32,000 nucleotides of DNA from Oscillospiraceae bacterium (lineage in GTDB: Bacteria > Bacillota > Clostridia > Oscillospirales > Oscillospiraceae). The stretch is from positions 14,614 to 46,613 of the forward strand of contig CACYYN010000022.1 in assembly GCA_902778665.1 (NCBI GenBank), in the 5' to 3' direction. The position numbers were made by a program, and so were the translations under genes. Below are positions 1 through 31,967 of the stretch, piece after piece (position 1 is the stretch's first letter; the number at the start of each line of letters is the position of its first letter). The notes beneath the pieces were generated by a model. That model was given only the letters and a program-made list of their open reading frames with translations. It had not been told where the DNA came from and ran no database searches.

Positions 1-342
1 CTCATAGTTGCTCTGCAGCTCTTCTATGCAAAACTGGCACTGGGCAGCCTCGTCTGAAATCGATACCCCCAGGCTTCGTGTCATTGTGTACAGTTTGTCT
101 TTCCGATCAGAGGCGGTCCACTGGCACAGCCCATAACCATATCCATCTGACATAAACTGCCACCTGGTCATCATCCCATTATCTACGTTATAGGTGTAGT
201 CTTTGTCGCCCATGGGACAGTTATCCTGGACGTTATTACTTCTCAGCCCAGATTCTGCGAACATATTGCCCATGACACCACATGCTCCAGCTGGCGACAG
301 GCCTTTGGTCCGCAAGGCCGTGTAAATGCTTAATTCACTCAT
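1..342 (-). CDS. Endolysin / peptidoglycan hydrolase, N-terminal part. The C-terminus runs off the window edge.
   Basis: The minus-strand ATG is at 340-342, preceded by GAGAGGAGGAAGT. My translation, MSELSIYTALRTKGLSPAGACGVMGNMFAESGLRSNNVQDNCPMG..., carries the GNxxxESG signature of phage-tail-lysozyme-type domains. It is absent from the ORF track because it is truncated by the edge. Confidence 0.65.
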   Translation of the reverse strand, partial: MSELSIYTALRTKGLSPAGACGVMGNMFAESGLRSNNVQDNCPMGDKDYTYNVDNGMMTRWQFMSDGYGYGLCQWTASDRKDKLYTMTRSLGVSISDEAAQCQFCIEELQSNYE

Positions 343-492: not shown

Positions 493-527
493 GCAACGTG
501 CATCTTTCGCTTGAAAATGCACGTTGC
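493..527. repeat. Perfect 11-bp inverted repeat (gcaacgtgcat / atgcacgttgc) whose loop contains a TTGAAA -35-like hexamer
   Basis: Read directly from the sequence. It lies ~130 bp upstream of the RHH gene start, so it may be an operator or promoter element (TTGAAA-17-CTTATT with a TG extension, weak). Confidence 0.4.
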
Positions 528-659
528 TTCTGGCTTATTGATTACCGTTGAATTCCTGTCGCGTTGTTACTTTTTGCCATAGTTTAATGTCGTGACTTGT
601 AGTGCCTTTATTTTGCCTTTTTGCCGTGACTGTGGTATTCTTTCCTCGGAGGTGTTGTC

Positions 660-854
660 ATGGCAGAACGCAATCCTACCAGAGGCCTCCCCCGCATGGG
701 GCAACCGCATCCAGAGCCTTGCGCCAGAATGAGTATCGCCGTCTCACAGGAAGTCTTTGATTGTCTTGAGAAATACTGTACCGATGACGAACGCTCTAAA
801 TCTTGGTGCGTCGAAAAGACTTTGAAGATGTGGCTTGAGTCCAAGTGGTACTGA
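660..854 (+). CDS. Small ribbon-helix-helix (CopG/Arc-like) DNA-binding protein, 64 aa
   Basis: GGAGGTG lies 5 nt upstream of the ATG. After a Pro-rich N-terminal tail, the pattern RMSIAVSQEVFDCLEKYC...SKSWCVEKTLKMWLE fits a strand-helix-helix layout. The fold assignment is inference only. Confidence 0.55.
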   Translation: MAERNPTRGLPRMGQPHPEPCARMSIAVSQEVFDCLEKYCTDDERSKSWCVEKTLKMWLESKWY

Positions 855-896
855 GATTCGCAGTACCCCATTTCATTACGGAAGGAGGTGAAATTA

Positions 897-1457
897 ATGA
901 CAGGTGTTATTCCAAATCCAAATCTGCCGCACAGCCAGCAAACGAATCATTCTGTTTTTACCATTACGCACGTTGGGGCAATAGATGACAACTTTGTTAA
1001 TTCCGTTATTAATATTGTCAACTCGTTTCAGACGATGCCAACAGAACTGATTCTTAGTATCAGCAGCGGTGGCGGACAAGTCATGCACGGAATCACTGCA
1101 TACAATTATTTGAAGAAACTTCCATGCGTTTTGCACACGCACAATATGGGCGAAGTCTCTTCAGCTGCAATTCTCCCATACTTGGCAGGTCAAATCCGAA
1201 CAGCTGACGCTGTATCCAAGTTCATGTTCCATCCTTTAACAATTGGGATAAATGCAGAAATGTCTTATCCCAAATTTCAAGAACTTCTTTCGATGCTGGA
1301 CAGAGACATTATCAACTATGCAGCAATAGTAGAAAGAGAAGCCCAGCAGCTCTGCAAAACTCATGATATCATGTCCGTATTAAAACATGATACTCTTGTA
1401 GTGACTGCCGCAGAAGGTCATGAACTTGGGCTTCTCAAAGACCCGGTTGCACTCTGA
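897..1457 (+). CDS. ClpP-fold (S14-like) serine protease, 186 aa
   Basis: GGAAGGAGGTG lies 8 nt upstream of the ATG at 897. SISSGGGQVMHGITAYNYL resembles the ClpP INSPGG motif. GEVSSAAILPYLAG supplies the Ser position, FMFHPL the His position, and KHDTLVVTAAEGHELGLLKD the Asp position plus the C-terminal GL-hydrophobic-D motif. Confidence 0.75.
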   Translation: MTGVIPNPNLPHSQQTNHSVFTITHVGAIDDNFVNSVINIVNSFQTMPTELILSISSGGGQVMHGITAYNYLKKLPCVLHTHNMGEVSSAAILPYLAGQIRTADAVSKFMFHPLTIGINAEMSYPKFQELLSMLDRDIINYAAIVEREAQQLCKTHDIMSVLKHDTLVVTAAEGHELGLLKDPVAL

Positions 1458-1565
1458 TTTGTCATTCTTATTTTCAGACGTGCTAAATTGTGTCCTAACA
1501 GGCTGTTCAATCTTTTTAAGAACAGCCTGAATTTCTTCTTCTGTTCCTTCAATAATCAGCTTCAT
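1380..1565 (-). CDS. Hypothetical 61-aa ORF, possibly a remnant
   Basis: It has a strong RBS (GGAGGT, 5 nt, ATG). However, it overlaps the 3' end of the convergent protease gene by 78 nt and contains the 1499-1529 hairpin. Confidence 0.35.
   Translation of the reverse strand: MKLIIEGTEEEIQAVLKKIEQPVRTQFSTSENKNDKSECNRVFEKPKFMTFCGSHYKSIMF
1499..1529 (+). terminator. 10-bp perfect hairpin (caggctgttc / gaacagcctg) 42 nt after the protease stop
   Basis: The stem was read directly. It is followed by aatttcttcttctgtt, which is only moderately T-rich. Confidence 0.4.
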
Positions 1566-1873: not shown

Positions 1874-3637
1874 TTATGCTGTGTAATAATAACGTACTTT
1901 TAGCCCTGTTATAATCTGATTAGGCGCACCAATAACATATGCGCCTTGTGCGGTTATAGATATTGCCGCAACAGGGTCTAATGATGTCCAAGTCAAAAAC
2001 ATTGCCAAAACAACAATTTTATCTTGTGGTGCATATGACGATATATTAGCAAACCCTTGAGCGTTTAATGTTATATCTCCAACAGTTACATCAACATAAC
2101 CACGCATCAAAATATCTGATAATGCGTTATTAGAATATACTAAATTACTGTTTGTATATGTTGCCCCGTTTGCGATGTTATTTATTGCGACATAAAAACC
2201 GTCTGCTAATGTACTGTGTCCCGTCAAATATAACGCAGTGCCGTAATTGATTCGGCTACCGGTATTATTTGTATTACCGTATACCACTAACGCAAGATTA
2301 TTTTCCAAGGAGTTTAAAGAACCCTTTAACTCACTCAGTTCCTCGCCGACAGAATCCGCAGTGTGTGTCGCAAGCGTATCGTCATAGCCGATATTTTCAG
2401 CTGTCAAGGTGCGGTTTGCTGACAGATTCAATCCGTTGATCGTGCGCGTATTTGGGACCTTCCCAGCCTGTAGTTCGTTGGCCGCTTCAGTAAGATTTGT
2501 CGCTGAAAACGTAGAGTCAAGACTTCCAACGCCGACCTTTGCCGAAATAATCCTGTTCTGTACCGGGTTGGCAGAAGTCGTAGACAATGCACTGTCTACA
2601 GCACTGCTCATTCCTCGCCAGTCATAAGTCCCTCCGGCAGTGGAAATGCAGATGTACATGATACCGCCAGTCTTGTCAAAGTACAGCTGGTTGACTTGGC
2701 CGACAGTTGCTGTTGTAGGAGCTCCGTAGTCCTGGATGATCAGCGGAACATCTCCAGCAGATCCGGAAACGCCAATGCCAGCGACAGAGGAAACAGCGCC
2801 GGTCCCGTTGGCACCGTTATAGACCTGGATCTGTGACGTATCACCATCGTTGTATGTGATGGTATACACATCTATCGTTCCGGCAGCATGGGTACCGGAT
2901 GTCTGCGTAAAGGAAACAATGCTGCGGCCGTTCGTCACAGTAAAGGTGTGCGTTTCCCCGTTGCCCATAGTGACGGTATAGGTGTCAACCAGACCAGCCG
3001 TGCTTGTCTTGACAATACTCTCGATCTCGCTGCCATTCGTCACTGTGAAAGTTGTGGTTGTTCCGTTACTCATGGTGACCGTGTAGGTGTCTACCAAACC
3101 GCTGGTCCCGGTCTTCGCAATGCCGGTGATAGATGTGCCGGTGTCTCCAGTATCACCTTTATCACCATATACACCCTGCACCGCCGGCGTCGTTGACGAA
3201 GAGGTCCCATCAGTATATGTGTACCGTGTATAGTGCCACAGATACTTATAGGTTGCCGTCAGTGTTTGCGGTGTTGTCTGCCATGACTGAGGTGTGGTAC
3301 TGCCTGATGTACTTACCGCCCAGTATTCGGTGATGCTTGAAACATTCTCACCATCTCTGACGGTAAGCGTTGATGTTGTGCCGTCGTTGTAGGTAATCGT
3401 GACCGTTGTCACCTTGCCGGATTTACTGGATGTAAGATTACTGATACTCCGTCCGTTCGTGACGGTAAACGTGCTGGTGGTAGCATCAGAGAATGTGATC
3501 GTGTAGGTGTCCACCAGTGCGCTTGTGCCAGTCTTTTCAATTGTCTGGATTCCACCGTGACCATCTGCGAAAGATAGCAGCCAGTTCTCCAAGATCTGCC
3601 CGGTTAGCTTTTTTGCTACTGCACCCTGCTCCAGCAC
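1874..3637 (-). CDS. Tail fibre / receptor-binding protein. The true 5' end is probably near 3700.
   Basis: It contains five ~32-aa repeats of the type KTGTSGLVDTYTVTMSNGTTTTFTVTNG, a short collagen-like GDKGDTGDTG stretch, and a KYLWHYTRYTYTDGT motif. It sits after the other tail genes. Confidence 0.8.
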   Translation of the reverse strand: MLEQGAVAKKLTGQILENWLLSFADGHGGIQTIEKTGTSALVDTYTITFSDATTSTFTVTNGRSISNLTSSKSGKVTTVTITYNDGTTSTLTVRDGENVSSITEYWAVSTSGSTTPQSWQTTPQTLTATYKYLWHYTRYTYTDGTSSSTTPAVQGVYGDKGDTGDTGTSITGIAKTGTSGLVDTYTVTMSNGTTTTFTVTNGSEIESIVKTSTAGLVDTYTVTMGNGETHTFTVTNGRSIVSFTQTSGTHAAGTIDVYTITYNDGDTSQIQVYNGANGTGAVSSVAGIGVSGSAGDVPLIIQDYGAPTTATVGQVNQLYFDKTGGIMYICISTAGGTYDWRGMSSAVDSALSTTSANPVQNRIISAKVGVGSLDSTFSATNLTEAANELQAGKVPNTRTINGLNLSANRTLTAENIGYDDTLATHTADSVGEELSELKGSLNSLENNLALVVYGNTNNTGSRINYGTALYLTGHSTLADGFYVAINNIANGATYTNSNLVYSNNALSDILMRGYVDVTVGDITLNAQGFANISSYAPQDKIVVLAMFLTWTSLDPVAAISITAQGAYVIGAPNQIITGLKVRYYYTA

Positions 3638-12834: not shown

Positions 12835-13482
12835 TTAACCTCCTATGGAAAGTTTGATTTTGAGCATCAGCTGCTCTTTCTGCCTCTCGCGCTCAGACCG
12901 CTCCTGTCTGATTTCGGCAATCAATCCGTCGCTGAAATTACGCGCACTGATTTCTGTCCCGTCGTTCGCCGGAAGGCTCACAGCGGAAACATCGTACAGT
13001 TTTCCGATCTTGGTAATTGTTCTGGTGACCGTTGTGATGCCTGTGGAGTTGTCTTCTTTCACAAGCCGCTCATCTTCTGCCACCCGGAACCCGAAGGACA
13101 TTTTATTCGTATAGCCGCCACGGATCTCATCATAGAGCTGACGGCCAATCTCTGTCCCGCCAAGATTTGCCCGGATATGCAGCCCTCTGTCATCTGCGTC
13201 CAGCTGCAGAGTGCCGTTGCTGAGTCTTGCGAATACTCGCCCCTGGTGATCATACTGCATGATCACATCGGACATATCGCATTCATCAAAGGCTCTTTTA
13301 TCCACCTGCTCAAAAACACGATAATCACCGAATTCATAGAGCAGATAAGGATCATCAAATGTGGTGGCGTATCCTTCAACTATCTTTTCACTGTCATCCT
13401 CAGACTCCAGCGCCCGGAATTCCATTTGAACATTCCGGTATTCTCTGCCACCGTTAATCTTATCATCAATCATTGTTTTCAT
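12835..13482 (-). CDS. Prohead maturation protease, HK97/S78 family
   Basis: The sequence EGYATTFDDPY...IMQYDHQGRVFAR...MSFGFRV supports the call. The start is set at MKTMIDD, which has a GGAGGG RBS. Confidence 0.9.
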   Translation of the reverse strand: MKTMIDDKINGGREYRNVQMEFRALESEDDSEKIVEGYATTFDDPYLLYEFGDYRVFEQVDKRAFDECDMSDVIMQYDHQGRVFARLSNGTLQLDADDRGLHIRANLGGTEIGRQLYDEIRGGYTNKMSFGFRVAEDERLVKEDNSTGITTVTRTITKIGKLYDVSAVSLPANDGTEISARNFSDGLIAEIRQERSERERQKEQLMLKIKLSIGG

Positions 13483-14641
13483 CTGTCCCTCCGTCATCAT
13501 TGTTAACATCATTGGCGTTTTTATATTCGCCTCTGATTGTTCTCACATCTCCACCATCTACCGGTGCCAGATTGAAGATCTCTCTGGCCTCGTTGATGGA
13601 GAAGACACCTCTGTCCGTCATCTGGGACGCTATATTCAGCTTTTCTTTTGTGGACATATACTGCAGCCTGTTGGCCGTCAGCATGATCTGATTTCCATAG
13701 CCGCGCTCGTTTAGGCTGAAGACTGCTTTGGTCATCACATCGGAAAACTGAATTGCAAACGGCTCAATCGCACCCTCGTAAAAGCCTTGCCATGCATCGC
13801 CGTAGGCTTTGTTCTGCAGAACGTCTTCATTTACGCCGAAGTAATCATAAACATTTGTCCTGATTTCTTTCGCCTGTGCTTCGTCTACAGTGTATGGTGT
13901 GATTGTAAGCTGCTTAATATCTGTGTACTGATTCGGGAACAGAAGCAGCCCGCCGCCATCCTCGTCCTGGAAGTTCTGTCGGTTGAAGCGTTTCCGCTCT
14001 TTTGCGAGGTCTTCGGCATTGGTAAAGTTATTCAGCCTTGCCATCAGACGATAACTGTTGGAGTTCTTCGCCGCTTCTTTAATTGCCTGCCCTTGCAGTG
14101 CAATGAGATCCATCGTGTCGCTCAAAGCTTCATTTCCGGAGCCGAAGAAATCGTCATCATATTGGAAACGAGTCATAACCCCGCAGCGTGAAAGCTCGAC
14201 CGCTGCCTCCTGCCCATTGGAGAAGCGATAGCGTAGCCACGCAGTACCGCCATAGTCCTGAACAGATGTAGACGAGGGCAGCACCGGATAATAGCCGGTA
14301 ACATAACGGTATTCATCAAACACCGGCACAATGAAAGCTGTAGTCTGCATATCGAGGATTGTCGACAGCCGGTAAAGGAACTGCCCCCATGTCATCCATT
14401 CATTCGGTGCTTTTGTCAGCTTTGTTTTGAGCTCCGGCTTCGCTGAGCCTATCATTTCAAATTTCAGCTTGCTGATATGCCTTGCTCTGGCATCCACTGC
14501 CGCCCGGATCAGCGCCGCTTCATAAATACTGCCGGCATAATTTCGGAAAACAGGAGTGTAGGCATTCAGCGTCTGAAAATATCCGTTATCCTGTCCGCTG
14601 GGCTTCGGCTGCCGGCCGAATATTTTGTCAAAAAGTCCCAT
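13466..14641 (-). CDS. Portal protein, HK97 family, 391 aa
   Basis: Its size, its position after TerL and the family-typical sequence support the call. Confidence 0.9.
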   Translation of the reverse strand: MGLFDKIFGRQPKPSGQDNGYFQTLNAYTPVFRNYAGSIYEAALIRAAVDARARHISKLKFEMIGSAKPELKTKLTKAPNEWMTWGQFLYRLSTILDMQTTAFIVPVFDEYRYVTGYYPVLPSSTSVQDYGGTAWLRYRFSNGQEAAVELSRCGVMTRFQYDDDFFGSGNEALSDTMDLIALQGQAIKEAAKNSNSYRLMARLNNFTNAEDLAKERKRFNRQNFQDEDGGGLLLFPNQYTDIKQLTITPYTVDEAQAKEIRTNVYDYFGVNEDVLQNKAYGDAWQGFYEGAIEPFAIQFSDVMTKAVFSLNERGYGNQIMLTANRLQYMSTKEKLNIASQMTDRGVFSINEAREIFNLAPVDGGDVRTIRGEYKNANDVNNDDGGTDENND

Positions 14642-19232: not shown

Positions 19233-19260
19233 ATAGATACGCGTGCGCGCGCGTATCTAT
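19233..19260. repeat. 28-bp inverted repeat atagatacgcg-tgcgcg-cgcgtatctat with an alternating CG core, 48 bp upstream of the Rep-like gene
   Basis: Read directly from the sequence. The arms are 11 bp and perfect. Confidence 0.7.
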
Positions 19261-19295
19261 ATAAAGAAGATCTTTCAGTTTTCAAGGTTCACTTG

Positions 19296-19344
19296 AGGCC
19301 CTCAGACAGCAGCACCAGATTTCTGATGCCGTTACCTCAAAGTC
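19296..19344 (+). repeat. Left copy of the 49-bp direct repeat flanking the NYN cassette
   Basis: It matches 20276-20324 at 47/49 positions. The offset is exactly 980 bp. Confidence 0.9.
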
Positions 19345-19381
19345 CCATGAGTATTGTTAATGGAAAATTCTTATACACTAC

Positions 19382-19411
19382 TTGACGCGATGAAGAAATC
19401 TATGATATATT
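19382..19411 (+). promoter_or_regulatory. SigmaA-type promoter, TTGACG-18-TATATT, with a TGa extended -10
   Basis: The hexamers were read directly. It lies ~145 nt upstream of the NYN ATG. Confidence 0.6.
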
Positions 19412-19557
19412 TTGTCTGCAGGTAGAAATACACTGCATACTCGCTTTTGCGAGGGGCTATTAAAGCCTTTATTGCTAAACAGGCTCTTGGTAGTAAGCGC
19501 TCCACCATAAGGAGATTGCTGAATCCTCGGGCCTTATTTGTTAGAAAGGGGTTTTCA

Positions 19558-20229
19558 ATGATACGCACAGCAATTCTTGTTGATGGTGGGTTCTATAGGA
19601 AACGGGCTAAAAACTTATGGGGCGAATTAACTGCTGAAGCAAGAGCAAAAGAACTTGTTGCATATTGTCAAGCCCATATTCACAGTAGTTCAAAAGATGA
19701 ATCAATCCGTCTATACCGCGTGTTCTATTATGACTGTGAGCCTATAGGACGCCGGAGTGTTTACCATCCTCTTCGCCAGGAAAACGTTGACCTCGATAAA
19801 TCTGAAACGTACACCTGGTCAACTGCGTTTCTGGAAGAACTGAAAAAAAAGAGAAAATTCGCTCTTCGGCTTGGGCATTTATCAGACCAAATGAACTATA
19901 ATTTAAAGCCTGAAGTAACTAAAGCTCTTCTATCTGGGAAAAGAAGTATCGAAAGTCTCACAGATAAGGATTTCGTATTTAATATTCAGCAAAAAGGCGT
20001 GGATATGAAAATAGGTGTTGACATTGCCTCTCTTGCCTATAAAAAGCAGGTTGATCAGATTATTTTAATAGCCGGAGACAGTGATTTTGTCCCTGCTGCA
20101 AAACTTGCCCGCCGTGAAGGAATCGACTTTATCTTAGATCCAATGGGTGTTATGATAAGAGATGATTTATTTGAACACATTGATGGTCTGAAATCCCATT
20201 GGCGAAATCAGTCTAAGGTTTCTGAATAA
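19558..20229 (+). CDS. NYN-domain (LabA/PIN-like) predicted ribonuclease, 223 aa
   Basis: The start is set at MIRTAILVDGGFY, preceded by GAAAGGGG. KGVDMKIGVDIASLAYKKQVDQIILIAGDSDFVPAAKLARREGIDF is the classic C-terminal NYN motif with its acidic residues. Confidence 0.8.
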   Translation: MIRTAILVDGGFYRKRAKNLWGELTAEARAKELVAYCQAHIHSSSKDESIRLYRVFYYDCEPIGRRSVYHPLRQENVDLDKSETYTWSTAFLEELKKKRKFALRLGHLSDQMNYNLKPEVTKALLSGKRSIESLTDKDFVFNIQQKGVDMKIGVDIASLAYKKQVDQIILIAGDSDFVPAAKLARREGIDFILDPMGVMIRDDLFEHIDGLKSHWRNQSKVSE

Positions 20230-21068: not shown

Positions 21069-22034
21069 TTACGTCTCCACCTTTTTGCGGAAAGCATCAA
21101 CTACTGCCATGATGGCCTTGGAGAGCTTTCCTGCTGTCTCCTGATCAGTATTCCGAATTCTAAGCAGGAGCCCGTGGAGGCGGTTCTGGTCCTCCTGCAG
21201 CTGCGTGAAATAGACCTCGAAGGTTGTTATATCCGGTGAAGCTTTCGCAAGCTGCTTCCGGAGGTCCTCGGCTTTCTGCTCGGCAGCGGCTCTGCCCGCT
21301 TCCGCTGCGGCAATTTCCGCCTGTGCCTCGGCATGGGCTTCTTCCCGGATCTCTCTTCTTTTCTCCTCCGATATCACGGGATTCGCTTTCGCATCCGCCA
21401 GGGCTGCACGGGCATCCTGCAGCTTCTTCTCGGCATCTTCTCTTGCCGATTCGGCCTTTTTCGCTTTGTCAACGGCCTTTGCCGCCTCTGTCTGCAGATT
21501 TGTGACCTGCTGGGCCTTCATGTTGAGGTCCCGGTTTGAATCTCTCAACATTTTATTGTCTTCTTCAAGCTTCTTCTGTGCTGAGACGGCAGCATCCCGC
21601 TCCTCGATCGCTTTTTTCAGTTCCCGGACGGACATGCTCTCCACATCGTGCTCTTTCACGAATTCTTCCCGCTCATTTTCCGGCACGGAAAGAAGGGCAA
21701 AAGCCTGAGAAATCCCCAAATTCCGAAACGTTTCGGAATTTAGATCACCGAAAAGGCTCTCCTGATTTGCCCCGTAGGCGTCATAAATCTTCATCATCAT
21801 GGTGGCTTTGTCCTGAGAGAATGGCAGATTCTCCTTGATCCAGTTTCCCCATTCCCCGTGGTCCACCAGTTGCTTTGCCTCGGTGAGCTTTCTCCCCAGC
21901 TGGATGGCATAGGAAAGCTCAGACCGGAGAGCTGTCTGGTAAAGCGTGTTGATCTCTGTCTTGATAATATTGATGTCCCGGAATTCGCCTTCCCGGACGG
22001 CTGTGGTTCTGCTGATGGTCAGTTCGTCGCTCAT
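21069..22034 (-). CDS. DUF3102-family protein with a C-terminal coiled coil, 321 aa
   Basis: The sequence IQLGRKLTEAKQLVDHGEWGNWIKENLPFSQDKATMMMKIYDAYG...SQAFALLSVPENEREEF supports the call. Confidence 0.75.
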   Translation of the reverse strand: MSDELTISRTTAVREGEFRDINIIKTEINTLYQTALRSELSYAIQLGRKLTEAKQLVDHGEWGNWIKENLPFSQDKATMMMKIYDAYGANQESLFGDLNSETFRNLGISQAFALLSVPENEREEFVKEHDVESMSVRELKKAIEERDAAVSAQKKLEEDNKMLRDSNRDLNMKAQQVTNLQTEAAKAVDKAKKAESAREDAEKKLQDARAALADAKANPVISEEKRREIREEAHAEAQAEIAAAEAGRAAAEQKAEDLRKQLAKASPDITTFEVYFTQLQEDQNRLHGLLLRIRNTDQETAGKLSKAIMAVVDAFRKKVET

Positions 22035-23794
22035 GCGGTTGTCCTCCTGTTATTTTTCAGCAGGTAGGGAGCCAGCACATCCGTCTCCCACGCCTGCACA
22101 AAGTCTGTTACTTCTTTCGGGATGCTCAGCCTCTTCCCGTGTGCGTACTCATTGCCGTATCCGTGCAGCTGGATCCGGTGCACTTTGCTGCCGTTCACAT
22201 CCTCGTTGAGTGTGAACCAGCTTCGCTCCGGCCTTCTGGCATGACGGACGAAGAAGATCATCTGCCCCCGGCAGTGCTGTGAGGCATAACCTCCCACGCA
22301 GTGATGCAGCACTGCACCTTCTCTGACCAGTTCCGCAGGACTTTCCGGAATGACAATGCAGTATTCCCCGTTTTTCCATTCCAGTGGAGCATACTTCTTC
22401 TTCATTTCCGCAAAGGTTCGGCACTCTTTCGATGTGCCGATCTTCTTTTGCTCTATTCTGATGGCCGTCAGCGCATCCGATACACGGTCATGAGCGTTCC
22501 GCAGGTCTCTCGGGAATTTCTCCTCCTGCGTCAGCTCTGTTTCCCGCTCCGTCATCTCGCAAAGGCTTCTGAGCATTCTTCTGTAGTCCAGATAATGGAC
22601 CGCATCGGTTTTCTGCTTCTCAATATAGCTGCAGATTCTCCCGAGGCCGTCTGAAAAGAATGGGGTGAAGCGGTCTATTCCGGTAGGATCAATCTGCTTC
22701 CCCCAGGCTGTGAATTCCGCCGCCGTCGTCTTCGGGAAGATCTTCCGATAGTCTTTGAATGCGCCAACCAGCTGAAGCGTCCAGGCATGAGATACGATGA
22801 AACGATAGTCTACCTTCCCGACGCCGAGGATCCGGTGCGGTTTTTTCTCTCTCAGGTCCATGCCAGCCATGTCCGTGCTGTAGCTGTATCTCATACGTGC
22901 CCGCACATAGTCTGACGCAATGGCAGCGCCCCCGGTTTTCACCAGCGCCTCGATGCTCCGGTTCTTTGACCAGATCTTCAGATAAGAGGAAGCGCACAGG
23001 GCATCCTTTGCTTTGAAATAGGTGTCGATCGCTGTTTTCTCTCCCGTGGTGCCGGTCATGTCCTCCACATTGCAGAACATATATGCGCCTGTTGATTTCA
23101 TGTAGAAACCGCCGCCCTCGCAGTACGGCATGGTTTCCGGATCATTCCACCGGCCGATTTTTCTCCATTTCCCATCTGTCCCGGTTCCGTACCGGATGAC
23201 TCTGCCGGAAGGGCTGACAGCCGTCGCACACCTTGCTGCTGCCGTCACAGAGCTATAGCCTGTCTTTTCCAGCCATCTGGTGGCCAGCCAGTAAAGGATG
23301 ACGGTGGTGGTTCCGATTTTCGTCAACTCGGCGATCTGGACCGTGAGGCTTCTTCCATTTATTCTGCTGCGCCTGATAAGCTCTCCCTCCGTGCCGCACA
23401 TCGGGCAGGTCATGGTTTCCCTTTTATTTCCGCTGACATCGAAGGACACGGTTTCAGGTTCTTCGCCGTCCGTCCATCCGTCCAGGAGAAGGCCGTCTTC
23501 CATCTGCAGCATCAGAATCTGTTTGTTCTTATATCCTGCTGTGAAGGTCTCCCCACAGGCAGTGCATCTGCAGGCTGCACCCCAGTGGTTTTTCTCTTCC
23601 ATCGCATAGCTGCCGAAGCTGTTCAGTATGCCCCAGTTGGCCGGGTCCGGCACGCTCTCCCGGGCCCAGATGATCAGGTGAGGTTTGATCTCCTCCAGCT
23701 TCTCCGCATATCTCCGGAGCTTATCATCCGGCTCATACGGGAGTGCTTCAAGCGTTGCCTGCTCCCACTCCCGCTCATCAATTCGTTTTCCCAT
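22031..23794 (-). CDS. PcfJ-like protein, 587 aa
   Basis: The C-terminal sequence LVREGAVLHHCVGGYASQHCRGQMIFFVRHARRPERSWFTLNE...RIQLHGYGNE supports the call. It also has an N-terminal CxxC...CPMC zinc-ribbon-like pairs. Confidence 0.75.
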   Translation of the reverse strand: MGKRIDEREWEQATLEALPYEPDDKLRRYAEKLEEIKPHLIIWARESVPDPANWGILNSFGSYAMEEKNHWGAACRCTACGETFTAGYKNKQILMLQMEDGLLLDGWTDGEEPETVSFDVSGNKRETMTCPMCGTEGELIRRSRINGRSLTVQIAELTKIGTTTVILYWLATRWLEKTGYSSVTAAARCATAVSPSGRVIRYGTGTDGKWRKIGRWNDPETMPYCEGGGFYMKSTGAYMFCNVEDMTGTTGEKTAIDTYFKAKDALCASSYLKIWSKNRSIEALVKTGGAAIASDYVRARMRYSYSTDMAGMDLREKKPHRILGVGKVDYRFIVSHAWTLQLVGAFKDYRKIFPKTTAAEFTAWGKQIDPTGIDRFTPFFSDGLGRICSYIEKQKTDAVHYLDYRRMLRSLCEMTERETELTQEEKFPRDLRNAHDRVSDALTAIRIEQKKIGTSKECRTFAEMKKKYAPLEWKNGEYCIVIPESPAELVREGAVLHHCVGGYASQHCRGQMIFFVRHARRPERSWFTLNEDVNGSKVHRIQLHGYGNEYAHGKRLSIPKEVTDFVQAWETDVLAPYLLKNNRRTTA

Positions 23795-29907: not shown

Positions 29908-31086
29908 ATGGGCAGGAGGGCAAAATACAAGGCCCGGCCGGACGGGCTGCGGGAGACCACAAAAAGCTATAAGGATTTCGGGCCTTCCCGGTATACCGGC
30001 CGGAAGCACTTCTACGGGCACAGCGATGACGAGGTCGATGCGAAGATCGAGGCCTTTGAGAAGGCGATGAAGTCCGCCCCGGAGAAGAAGGCCCGCTCCT
30101 TCGGAAAGGTCGCCGGTGACTGGTGGCAGGAGAAGGAGCCGACGCTCTCCCCGAATTCCGTCTGCGGATACCGGACGGCCCTGCACCGGGCTGACGAGGA
30201 ATTCGGCAGCATCCCCATCGACGAGATCACCCCGCAGCAGTGCATTGCCTACCTGAAGCGGTTTGCCGCCCAGGGCTACAGCATGAAGGTGATCACGAAC
30301 ACCAAGATCGTGCTGAAAGGGATTCTTGACCATGCGTTCGCCGACGGTGATATCAACAGCAACCCCTGTGCCAATCTGCCGCCGATCAAGGGAGCCGGGA
30401 AAAAGAAACGGCACGCAGCTGAGGATGAGGACATCCAGATTATTGAGCAGACGAAGACGCAGAGCCTATTCGCAAGGATGAGCTACTTCATGCTGTACAC
30501 CGGATGCCGGCGGGGCGAGGCAGCTGCCCTGCAGCAGAAGAACATCGACCGGGAAAAGAAAAAGGCCCGCATCGTGCAGGCGATCGCATACAGCGACACA
30601 AGAAAGCCCCAGCTCAAGCTGCCGAAGAGTGAGGCAGGGTTCCGGGAGATCGATCTCTATGACAATGTGCTGGAGATCCTGCCGGAGTATGAGGATCCGG
30701 AGACCTATGTCTTCTTCCCGGACGGTCTGCCGACGAAGACCTATCTGGAAGCCGGCCTGAAGAAATATCAGGAAGACAACGGCATCCGGGCAACCGCCCA
30801 CCAGCTCCGTCACAGCTATGCCAGCATGCTGCACTCCGCCGGCATCGACGTGAAGGATGCGCAGCATCTTCTCGGGCACAGCACCATCGCCATGACGCAG
30901 GATGTATACACCGAGATCGAGAAGGCGCACGGCAGCGAGATCCGGGAGACGGTGAACGCCTTCATCCAGGACAGGAAGCTGAACAAAGAGAAAAAGACCT
31001 GCCCCGAATGCGGGAGCAGGTATGTGAAAGCACCTGACGGGCATGTGTTTACCTACTGCCCGGACTGCGGTGCAAAACTGGTTTAA
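29908..31086 (+). CDS. int: Tyrosine integrase with a C-terminal zinc ribbon, 392 aa
   Basis: AGGAGGTG lies upstream of the ATG. The catalytic set is TGCRRGE, HQLRHSYAS, LLGHS and QDVYTE. The tail is CPECGSRYVKAPDGHVFTYCPDCG. Confidence 0.95.
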   Translation: MGRRAKYKARPDGLRETTKSYKDFGPSRYTGRKHFYGHSDDEVDAKIEAFEKAMKSAPEKKARSFGKVAGDWWQEKEPTLSPNSVCGYRTALHRADEEFGSIPIDEITPQQCIAYLKRFAAQGYSMKVITNTKIVLKGILDHAFADGDINSNPCANLPPIKGAGKKKRHAAEDEDIQIIEQTKTQSLFARMSYFMLYTGCRRGEAAALQQKNIDREKKKARIVQAIAYSDTRKPQLKLPKSEAGFREIDLYDNVLEILPEYEDPETYVFFPDGLPTKTYLEAGLKKYQEDNGIRATAHQLRHSYASMLHSAGIDVKDAQHLLGHSTIAMTQDVYTEIEKAHGSEIRETVNAFIQDRKLNKEKKTCPECGSRYVKAPDGHVFTYCPDCGAKLV

Positions 31087-31152
31087 GGGTGTCGTATGTC
31101 GTAAAAAATGTCGTAAACGGCTGAGAGGCCCAATAAACACTGGATTCTGTTA

Positions 31153-31178
31153 GGGTTCGAGCCCCCGCTGGAGCACCA
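31153..31178 (+). other. Orphan 3' end of a tRNA gene (T-loop, acceptor 3' strand and CCA), taken as the prophage att core
   Basis: The sequence is gggttcgagcccccgctggagcacca. No complementary 5' acceptor strand (gctccag) lies 60-75 nt upstream, so this is not a complete tRNA. Confidence 0.7.
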
Positions 31179-31182
31179 AAAA

Positions 31183-31221
31183 CCCTTCAAAAGTGAAAGC
31201 TTTTGAAGGGTTTTCTTTTTT
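31183..31221 (+). terminator. Rho-independent terminator of the disrupted tRNA locus (host side)
   Basis: The stem is cccttcaaaag / cttttgaaggg, followed by ttttctttttt. Confidence 0.8.
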
Positions 31222-31367
31222 CTGCTCCGTGATCTCTCTGCTCTGCCGACCTGATCCGGAGAATTTGATAAAACCGGTATTGCTTTTTACCGTCAGATGG
31301 TGATATGATACGAGAAAGGGCAAATCAGGTTGCCCGTTCTGATTTAATAGTACAGGAGGTCTCAGCA

Positions 31368-31967
31368 ATGGTCATCACCATAAGCAGAGAATACGGCGCA
31401 GGCGGACACTCCATCGGCAAAAGCGTTGCGAAAGAACTCGGCATTGAGTTTTACGACCGGGATATCATCAAGGCAGCGGTAAAAGAGAGCGGCCTTGATC
31501 TGCCTGAGGTGGAACGTGTAGAAGAAGAGCTCACCCGCACCGGAATATTCCTGCGGATGATTTCTCCCGCTGCCTATGTGGATGAACAGCACACCGTTCA
31601 TGCAATTGAGCAGCGCGTCATAGTGGAGCTGGCTTTGAAGGAATCTTGTGTCATCCTCGGCAGATGTGCAGACGATATTCTTGAGAAAGCAAATATCCCC
31701 TGTCTGAATGTTTTTCTGTACGCCAGTGACATCCACCGGGCAGCCCGTGTCGGTGAGCTGATCGGCAGTAAGAATCCCACGGAAATTCAGAAGAAAATGC
31801 AGAAGACCGATGCCGCCCGTCGTACCTTCTATGAGCAGTTCACAGGAAAACACTGGGGCGACAGCCGCAATTATACGCTTTCACTGGACACCGGGTTTCT
31901 GGGCTACGACACCTGTATACAGCTGATCTGTGAAGCTGCCCGCAAAGCCGACGCTTTCCAGATCTGA
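31368..31967 (+). CDS. Cytidylate-kinase-like family protein (host gene), 199 aa
   Basis: The start is at MVITISREYGAGGHSIGKSVAKELGIEFYDRDII, preceded by AGGAGG. The N-terminal P-loop-like motif is typical of this family. Confidence 0.75.
   Translation: MVITISREYGAGGHSIGKSVAKELGIEFYDRDIIKAAVKESGLDLPEVERVEEELTRTGIFLRMISPAAYVDEQHTVHAIEQRVIVELALKESCVILGRCADDILEKANIPCLNVFLYASDIHRAARVGELIGSKNPTEIQKKMQKTDAARRTFYEQFTGKHWGDSRNYTLSLDTGFLGYDTCIQLICEAARKADAFQI

Follow-up and report, generated by a model that had tools for sequence, protein, structure and literature searches.

The left end of a 32,000-nucleotide (nt) stretch of an Oscillospiraceae genome (GenBank assembly GCA_902778665.1, contig CACYYN010000022.1, positions 14,614 to 46,613; hereafter the window) carries two genes on the plus strand, which are placed between a tail-fibre-like gene and an endolysin gene that both lie on the minus strand, as the first-pass annotation of this DNA had described. 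Judged from sequence and structure comparisons, the second gene encodes a short ClpP of the type of ClpP1 from Pseudomonas plecoglossicida (PpClpP1), carried here as an accessory gene of a prophage, and such short ClpPs are widespread and unstudied in the literature that we found. The first gene encodes a protein of 64 residues that is probably a ribbon-helix-helix (RHH) DNA-binding protein. We think that the locus is probably, if by no means certainly, an accessory ('moron') unit that is oriented with the lysogeny genes and composed of two pieces that can be separated, with the protease as the cargo, and that it occupies a variable slot between tail-fibre and lysis genes. Short ClpP genes appear to sit at sites from which a lysogen would express its prophage genes, and therefore the locus is read as a composite accessory unit. 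An accessory module had been proposed before, and this part of the proposal is supported because the pair lies on the strand of the integrase, opposite to all lytic genes, and away from the capsid genes of a phage that has its own S78 prohead protease.

The 186-residue protein matches the Pfam family CLP_protease (PF00574) over residues 22-179 with 33.9 bits against a cut-off of 20.2, and misses the NCBIfam cut-offs of true ClpP by a wide margin. The closest solved structure is that of PpClpP1 (PDB 9UXT; sequence E 6e-21, 32% identity). An AlphaFold2 (AF2) model built from 18 relatives (predicted local distance difference test, pLDDT, 93.4) is also best matched by 9uxt_A, with template-modelling (TM) scores of 0.82-0.84 and a root-mean-square deviation of 1.7 Å, compared to TM scores of ~0.7 and identities of 15-22% for canonical ClpPs. 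The ClpP-like Ser, His, and Asp positions that had been noted earlier are only partly those of a canonical triad. Ser89 (VSSAA) and His112 (FMFHPL) are invariant across the 18 relatives and align with S97 and H122 of Escherichia coli ClpP and with S98 and H123 of Staphylococcus aureus ClpP. However, Asp165 of the KHDT motif, which is found in eight of the 18 relatives, lies one residue upstream of the canonical catalytic-Asp column, and that column is held by Thr166 here and by Thr or Ser throughout the family. It is safe to state that the predicted active site consists of Ser and His and that, like PpClpP1, the protein deviates from the canonical triad at the third position. In addition, model and alignment agree that the protein has neither the N-terminal axial loop nor helix A, the part of canonical ClpP that serves gating and the docking of ClpX or ClpC. 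The model contains no helix before the first strand (residues 20-26), the alignment has a gap at the canonical helix A, and relatives of 165 residues begin directly at the first strand. The sub-branch of the window has an extra N-terminal stretch of 19 residues (TG[V/I]IPNPN; residues 1-19), which is modelled with low confidence. A profile search of 1.84 billion representatives of 50%-identity clusters retrieved 20 of them with a cut-off of E <= 1e-30 and 1,555 with one of E <= 1e-10, and the short ClpP-like proteins thus constitute a large family.

PpClpP1 is a short paralogue without the N-terminal helix and with a Ser-His-Pro 'triad', which forms a tetradecamer with a 43-Å pore. It shows little peptidase activity by itself and no binding to ClpX, but it assembles with canonical ClpP into a mixed tetradecamer that is more active with ClpX (PMC12900304). 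The window protein resembles it as its top match in both sequence and fold, in length (186 versus 183 residues), in the absence of the N-terminal helix and gate, and in the retention of Ser and His next to a non-canonical third triad position. The two differ in that PpClpP1 is encoded on the chromosome of a Gammaproteobacterium, whereas the window protein belongs to the accessory slot of a Clostridia-type prophage. Furthermore, PpClpP1 lacks the 19-residue N-terminal extension, as do the 165-residue forms, and the proteobacterial branch has a C-terminal xWW tail that the window protein does not have. With the canonical ClpPs of E. coli and S. aureus the window protein shares the fold, the Ser at the nucleophile elbow, the His, and the long handle helix, but it differs from them in sequence (17-21% identity), in the missing N-terminal helix, in a Thr in the Asp171/172 column, in the location of Asp165 in the adjacent 'sensor' Arg column, and in that its gene is not found beside clpX. 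By homology, the protease is expected to assemble into a barrel of the ClpP type, with active sites made up of Ser and His. Because it lacks the gate and the N-terminal helix to which ClpX or ClpC dock, it would be either an unfoldase-independent peptidase or a co-assembler of host ClpP. Thus, it might act alone on unstructured substrates, or it might mix with the canonical ClpP of the host and thereby retune Clp proteolysis in the lysogen.

Weak PHROG and NCBIfam similarities connect the protein to ClpP-related head-maturation proteases, and one GenBank record labels a homologue from E. coli as 'head maturation protease' (the PGAP label of the same homologue is 'ATP-dependent Clp protease proteolytic subunit'). 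Nevertheless, it is hardly conceivable that the gene encodes a second virion-maturation or scaffold protease. The protein reaches 34.3 bits with the corresponding model NF045542, whose cut-off is 120, and its gene is encoded on the strand opposite to the structural genes. Neither capsid nor portal genes neighbour the ClpP-like gene in any of the inspected contexts, and the phage encodes an S78 protease of its own between portal and capsid, as had already been recognised. We therefore agree with the earlier conclusion that the protein is not the head-maturation enzyme.

Evidence for a separable protease gene comes from its occurrence elsewhere. Every relative with a usable contig was compared, which gave ten metagenomic phage or mobile-element contexts besides the window. 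In all ten the ClpP-like gene is solitary and encoded on the strand opposite to its neighbours, and in none of them is it preceded by an RHH gene. Five of the ten contexts adjoin cro/cI (L005/6, L015, L016, L018, and L026). Here, the gene is found one or two genes after cro, within the early operon but reversed, so that it has the direction of cI, the integrase, or the Abi_2 or DUF3800 accessory genes. Elsewhere, it is located between a DUF722 gene and the replication module (L002/L003), beside a helix-turn-helix gene and a Lar-like gene (L004), beside DUF3102/PcfJ genes that resemble those at 21-24 kb of the window (L025), or beside AAA_15/21, methylase, and Vsr genes (L008). A further solitary copy without an upstream RHH gene was identified beside the lysis genes of an Enterobacter phage-plasmid (L024). 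The nucleotide homology between the window, L002, and L004 spans the ClpP-like gene exactly from the start codon to the stop codon. An extended -10 element (TGnTAnnnT) is present 27-50 nt before the ATG in six of nine solitary copies, while a regex scan of the window found such an element ahead of the 64-residue open reading frame (ORF) only and none in the 80 nt before ATG 897. Two upstream ORFs were considered as RHH genes and rejected: the 69-residue ORF of L016 is not RHH-like, as far as its translation can be read by eye, and a 64-residue ORF in a Clostridia metagenome-assembled genome (L012) is a fragment of an ABC transporter. The short ClpP next to the latter (L012, 4926-5429) is damaged at its N-terminus, is surrounded by ABC-transporter fragments and transposase genes, and lies downstream of a gene that by eye looks like a radical-SAM/SPASM gene; this copy looks like a decaying remnant. 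A genome scan with narrow search patterns yielded three relatives only, and a scan of IMG/VR found no relatives.

The 64-residue ORF belongs to a cassette that is separable as well. The cassette is a sharply bounded block that is ~95% identical in the related phage L011, where it occupies the same slot after the lysin gene. Outside this block, the window and L011 show no kinship, neither on the lysin side, including the inverted repeat at 493-527, nor on the downstream side. In L011 the cassette is followed by genes for proteins of 96 and 133 residues of unknown function and by no protease gene. Because the RHH cassette is separate and heads different cargo in L011, a fixed system of RHH protein and protease is not supported. 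The G+C contents at third codon positions (GC3) of the two window genes are 0.57 (RHH ORF) and 0.40 (ClpP-like gene). The whole slot in L011 (4965-6617) comprises the RHH cassette, the 96-residue cargo with a zinc-ribbon-like motif, the 133-residue cargo, a further RHH-like gene that is a paralogue of the first, and a gene with an Acb2/Tad1 hairpin domain (E 2e-24). The slot after the lysin is a hot spot of conflict-related accessory genes.

The 64-residue protein had been assigned to the RHH proteins before, which we can confirm as probable only: the predicted strand-helix-helix topology fits, but all family matches remain below threshold. Among 5.8 billion proteins it has only two relatives, of which one is encoded in L011. 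The profile matches are RHH_5 with E 0.16 (12.2 bits versus 26) and an Arc-like PHROG with E 0.012. The AF2 model shows a disordered N-terminal part of 22 residues, an extended segment (23-29), and two helices (30-39 and 44-63), and hhalign places the protein in register with Arc/Mnt proteins (P 2.4e-4). BLASTP finds clear similarity to the second RHH-like protein of L011, encoded at L011:6206-6385 (E 6e-10), which itself matches RHH_1 with E 0.0034 and 17.7 bits versus a threshold of 20.5. Searches of the PDB with the model (Foldseek) and with the sequence (phmmer) returned nothing useful.

The coordinates of the locus and its surroundings are compiled in Table 1. As had been described, both plus-strand ORFs have strong Shine-Dalgarno sequences and are separated by 42 nt. 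The first piece of the unit would be a promoter cassette encoding a probable RHH repressor, which most likely autoregulates through the TTTTGCC repeats over its -35 element. This heptamer occurs three times within 54 bp versus 16 times in the whole 32-kb window, and copies two and three are kept in L011. The second piece would be the cargo, a short ClpP of the PpClpP1 type without a promoter of its own in this phage; its transcripts probably start at the RHH promoter, read through the cassette, and end at a terminator at 1499-1529.

Table 1. Features of the ClpP-like locus and of the surrounding prophage (window coordinates)
Feature	Position	Strand	Remarks
Phage_lysozyme2 endolysin, N-terminus	1-342	-	continues past window position 1
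Inverted repeat	493-527		perfect 11-bp arms (GCAACGTGCAT / ATGCACGTTGC); between lysin start and plus-strand cassette
Conserved RHH cassette	548-870	+	promoter region, 64-residue ORF, terminal hairpin 847-867
Direct repeats	572-625	+	TTTTGCC three times (572, 611, 619), TGYCGTGAC twice; over putative -35
Putative promoter	613-641	+	TTGCCT 613-618, 17-nt spacer, extended -10 TGgTATTCT 633-641
64-residue ORF	660-854	+	GGAGGT 6 nt before ATG
Hairpin over stop codon of 64-residue ORF	847-867	+	GGTACTG...CAGTACC, then CCATTTCATT; within conserved cassette; z = -1.7, weak
ClpP-like gene	897-1457	+	186 residues from ATG 897; Shine-Dalgarno GAAGGAGGTG at 881-890
Ser89 codon	1161-1163	+
His112 codon	1230-1232	+
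Asp165 codon	1389-1391	+
61-residue orphan ORF of late operon	1380-1565	-	last 25 codons are codon-aligned antisense of the ClpP-like 3' end
Hairpin	1499-1529		perfect 10-bp arms; 42 nt 3' of ClpP-like stop, T-rich tract next on plus strand
Tail-fibre-like gene	1874-3637	-	flank of the plus-strand gene pair
S78 prohead protease	12835-13512	-	between portal and capsid
Late genes		-	TerS, HNH endonuclease, TerL, portal, S78 prohead protease, capsid, tape measure
Tyrosine integrase	29908-31086	+	same strand as ClpP-like gene, opposite to all lytic genes

The TTTTGCC repeats are a better candidate for the operator of the RHH protein than the palindrome at 493-527, which the first-pass annotation had considered for binding by this protein. 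The perfect arms of the palindrome and the TTGAAA hexamer in its loop (511-516) are present as described, and the repeat folds as RNA with -20.3 kcal/mol (z = -5.3). However, it is not conserved in L011 despite the ~95% identical cassette there, and because it lies outside the conserved cassette it is unlikely to be the RHH operator. It is probably a terminator or insulator hairpin. The TTGAAA was also considered as a -35 element, and no acceptable -10 element is found at 17-18 nt downstream. The arms of the hairpin at 1499-1529 were verified, too (-16.6 kcal/mol, z = -4.0), and this hairpin is likely the terminator of the plus-strand unit. On the minus strand it is located inside the translated 61-residue ORF and on the plus strand in an untranslated tail, and it could therefore terminate transcription of one strand only. 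The hairpin over the stop codon of the 64-residue ORF may be a weak terminator or attenuator between the RHH and ClpP-like genes. In general, perfect hairpins of at least 10 bp are found at about nine distinct sites in the window versus 0.33 hits per shuffle, and several of them flank other plus-strand genes. They look like the usual punctuation of this phage and not like something special to the ClpP locus.

An RHH gene followed by a short ClpP gene, which the first-pass annotation was not aware of from any described defence or toxin-antitoxin system, is also encoded in E. coli. A tblastn search against GenBank phages retrieved a homologue of 178 residues with 33% identity to the window protein in six E. 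coli phages. Both phiv205-1, which is P22-like, and the P22-like prophages of several strains, APEC O1 among them, encode the short ClpP as the second gene of a two-gene unit, whose first gene encodes an Arc/Mnt-family RHH protein of 82-84 residues (PF03869, E 9.6e-11). Opposite to this unit lie arc and the antirepressor gene, and its flanks are tailspike and ejection-protein genes, while in the lambdoid PhiR12 phages the whole block is inserted among the tail genes, with K/I on one side and L/M on the other. Of 5,426 complete E. coli genomes, 126 contain the short ClpP gene, for instance those of strains APEC O1 and IMT5155, and in an evenly spaced sample it is directly preceded by an Arc-family gene in 49 of 51 copies. 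Therefore, the architecture is undescribed only in the sense that no study of it was found, as searches of the literature on phage and prophage ClpP paralogues, on ClpP in defence, and on ClpP in immI returned nothing on an RHH/short-ClpP module; in genome annotations it is present. The E. coli pairs (phiv205-1, APEC O1, and PhiR12_5) resemble that of the window in the order of a small RHH gene and a short ClpP gene, in the orientation opposite to the late genes, and in the position between virion genes. They differ in that the E. coli genes overlap start to stop and face arc-ant, whereas the window genes are separated by the 42-nt gap with the intergenic hairpin, have the lysin on their other side, and are not accompanied by arc/ant. 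In addition, the window RHH protein shows no sequence similarity to the Mnt-like protein of E. coli, and the two are thus not detectably related. In some E. coli copies (e.g. L020 3660-4444) only the 3' half of the Mnt-like gene is linked with the protease gene, while the 5' half encoding the DNA-binding part is exchanged between alleles, and some E. coli prophages contain the Mnt-like gene without the protease gene.

The adjacency and probable co-transcription of the two window genes and the independent recurrence of the same order in E. coli could be taken to indicate that the two genes form a dedicated system, with the protease as a toxic or defensive effector that is kept in check by an RHH antitoxin or governed by an RHH sensor-regulator. 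A ClpP without gate could in principle be toxic, as we infer from the work on PpClpP1 (PMC12900304). However, such a system, which had also been suggested from the window alone, is quite improbable. The pair is not conserved as a unit, given that the upstream RHH gene is absent from all ten other metagenomic contexts and from the Enterobacter phage-plasmid, and that in L011 this RHH cassette stands at the head of unrelated genes. The solitary copies have strong-looking promoters of their own, and a toxin that depends on an antitoxin would not be expected to be encoded alone behind a promoter that looks constitutive. In the immI region of P22, Mnt represses the antirepressor promoter, and the E. 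coli RHH protein is Mnt, whose known role is this repression. Searches of PADLOC-DB v2 gave no match at E <= 1 for the RHH or the ClpP-like protein of the window and none at E <= 0.01 for the E. coli homologues.

From the positions of the genes we infer that the common thread is a placement for expression in the lysogen and not a partnership of RHH protein and protease. This placement would be achieved in the immunity region by an own promoter, in E. coli by co-transcription with mnt, or, as here, by a small and seemingly autoregulated promoter cassette upstream, in an accessory slot close to the lysis end of the prophage. The benefit to the phage would most likely be the exclusion of other phages or a stabilised lysogeny. 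With respect to the first, the protease could be a prophage-encoded superinfection-exclusion or anti-phage effector that proteolyses incoming phage proteins, which is possible although rather doubtful. The orientation with the lysogeny genes and the neighbouring Abi_2 and DUF3800 genes would fit, as would the homologue beside AAA_15/21, methylase, and Vsr genes, but position alone is weak evidence and no PADLOC model was matched. In P22, orf59a and sieA, a prophage-expressed exclusion gene, are clustered with mnt (PMC10883804). The window locus is similar in that a presumably lysogeny-expressed accessory gene is located downstream of a probable RHH repressor gene among late genes, but SieA is related to ClpP neither in sequence nor in fold. 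On the P22 map, which gives the order of the sieA/mnt cluster relative to gene 16 and arc/ant, sieA lies downstream of mnt. The short ClpP of the E. coli P22-like prophages, which is encoded downstream of mnt, occupies this place of sieA, and this would also fit an exclusion effector. With respect to a stabilised lysogeny, the protease could safeguard the lysis-lysogeny switch by removing antirepressor or Cro-like regulators expressed through leakage, or by boosting their turnover by host ClpXP or ClpCP. The copies one or two genes away from cro/cI (L005, L015, L016, L018, and L026), the copy in the E. coli mnt operon facing arc-ant, and the increased ClpXP activity when PpClpP1 is mixed with canonical ClpP are consistent with such a function. 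We nevertheless regard it as unlikely because in the window and in L024 the gene adjoins the lysis genes and not the switch.

Several observations weigh against the composite accessory unit that we favour. The protease activity could be low, as in PpClpP1, because the third triad residue is non-canonical. The putative promoter matches the consensus at only 8 of 12 positions plus the TG, and the hairpin over the stop codon of the RHH gene might halt transcription ahead of the protease gene. Moreover, since an RHH gene again precedes a short ClpP gene in E. coli, the two might be linked in function and not only by the co-transcription that we assume.

Many functions in phage resistance and fitness stem from prophage accessory genes, which are a main source of them, and few of those known so far encode proteases. 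With moderate probability, the short ClpP family plays an interesting role in lysogens that has gone unrecognised. PpClpP1, the only characterised relative, alters host ClpXP on mixing and thus offers a concrete and testable route by which a phage could reprogramme host proteolysis. The E. coli copies are situated in the well-studied immI region of P22, yet we found no paper on them, and the E. coli phages are a tractable model, unlike the Clostridia phage. As a tentative generalisation, for which we would not claim more than a modest plausibility, short gate-less ClpPs could be widespread prophage-expressed effectors wired into immunity regions, which alter the proteolysis of the lysogen through their own barrels or by invading host ClpP, for exclusion or to lock in lysogeny, with a convergent in-register overlap that is maybe tied to insertion or silencing.

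This overlap concerns the 3' end of the ClpP-like gene, where a convergent 61-residue ORF had already been noticed; the two share 78 nt. The ORF has no relatives in the databases. It was considered as a true partner of the protease and rejected, since beyond the overlap it has no significant similarity to the small convergent ORFs of the other contexts (p 0.03-0.6). The Clostridia-type contexts with an overlapping neighbour on the lytic strand are the window (1380-1457), L002, L004, L025, L026, L005, L015, L016, and L018. In all nine the shared stretch, 24-78 nt long and always divisible by three, is read by the neighbour in the codon-aligned antisense frame. The stop codon of the protease is TGA and reads as Ser in the neighbour, and the stop codon of the neighbour lies antisense to a codon for Leu or Ser. 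The overlapping neighbours are unrelated outside the overlap. About seven of the contexts are independent, and in-register overlaps would be expected by chance at ~1 in 1,000. Of the other antisense frames, one is open to the same extent. The overlap may be a pointer to the mode of insertion or to silencing in lytic growth.

The window covers most of an integrated temperate siphophage, nearly all of whose genes are encoded on the minus strand. A megablast search of the window against GenBank phages and an Rfam scan of positions 1-2200 gave no match. The absence of a holin-like ORF, which had been noted earlier, is an effect of the window edge, where the lysin gene runs off position 1. In L001, which contains the same phage, two small membrane-like ORFs follow the lysin (weak matches only), and in the related phage L011 the lysin is followed by a Dp-1-type holin. 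Just upstream of the ribosome-binding site of the lysin, the minus-strand leader contains a GC-rich perfect 9-bp hairpin (366-393; GCGGGCATC...GATGCCCGC) that may control lysin expression. The DUF3102 and PcfJ-like gene pair of the window (21069-23794) is also found in L004 and L025, phages that carry the short ClpP at another site. Therefore, the gene has been acquired or moved more than once in this phage group.

The GC3 of the integrase is 0.79 compared to ~0.5 in the other phage genes. Behind the integrase gene come a long perfect hairpin (31179-31214) and then a cytidylate-kinase-like gene that looks host-like and is probably bacterial (region 29908-31967), and because of this order one end of the prophage seems to be near 31.1-31.3 kb. 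The region 19233-20229 contains a further plus-strand gene amid minus-strand genes, which encodes a 260-residue NYN-domain protein (Pfam E 9e-11; PADLOC NYN model E 7e-7). The gene is preceded by a perfect 11-bp hairpin (19233-19260) and is a candidate for another gene with an accessory or defence role.

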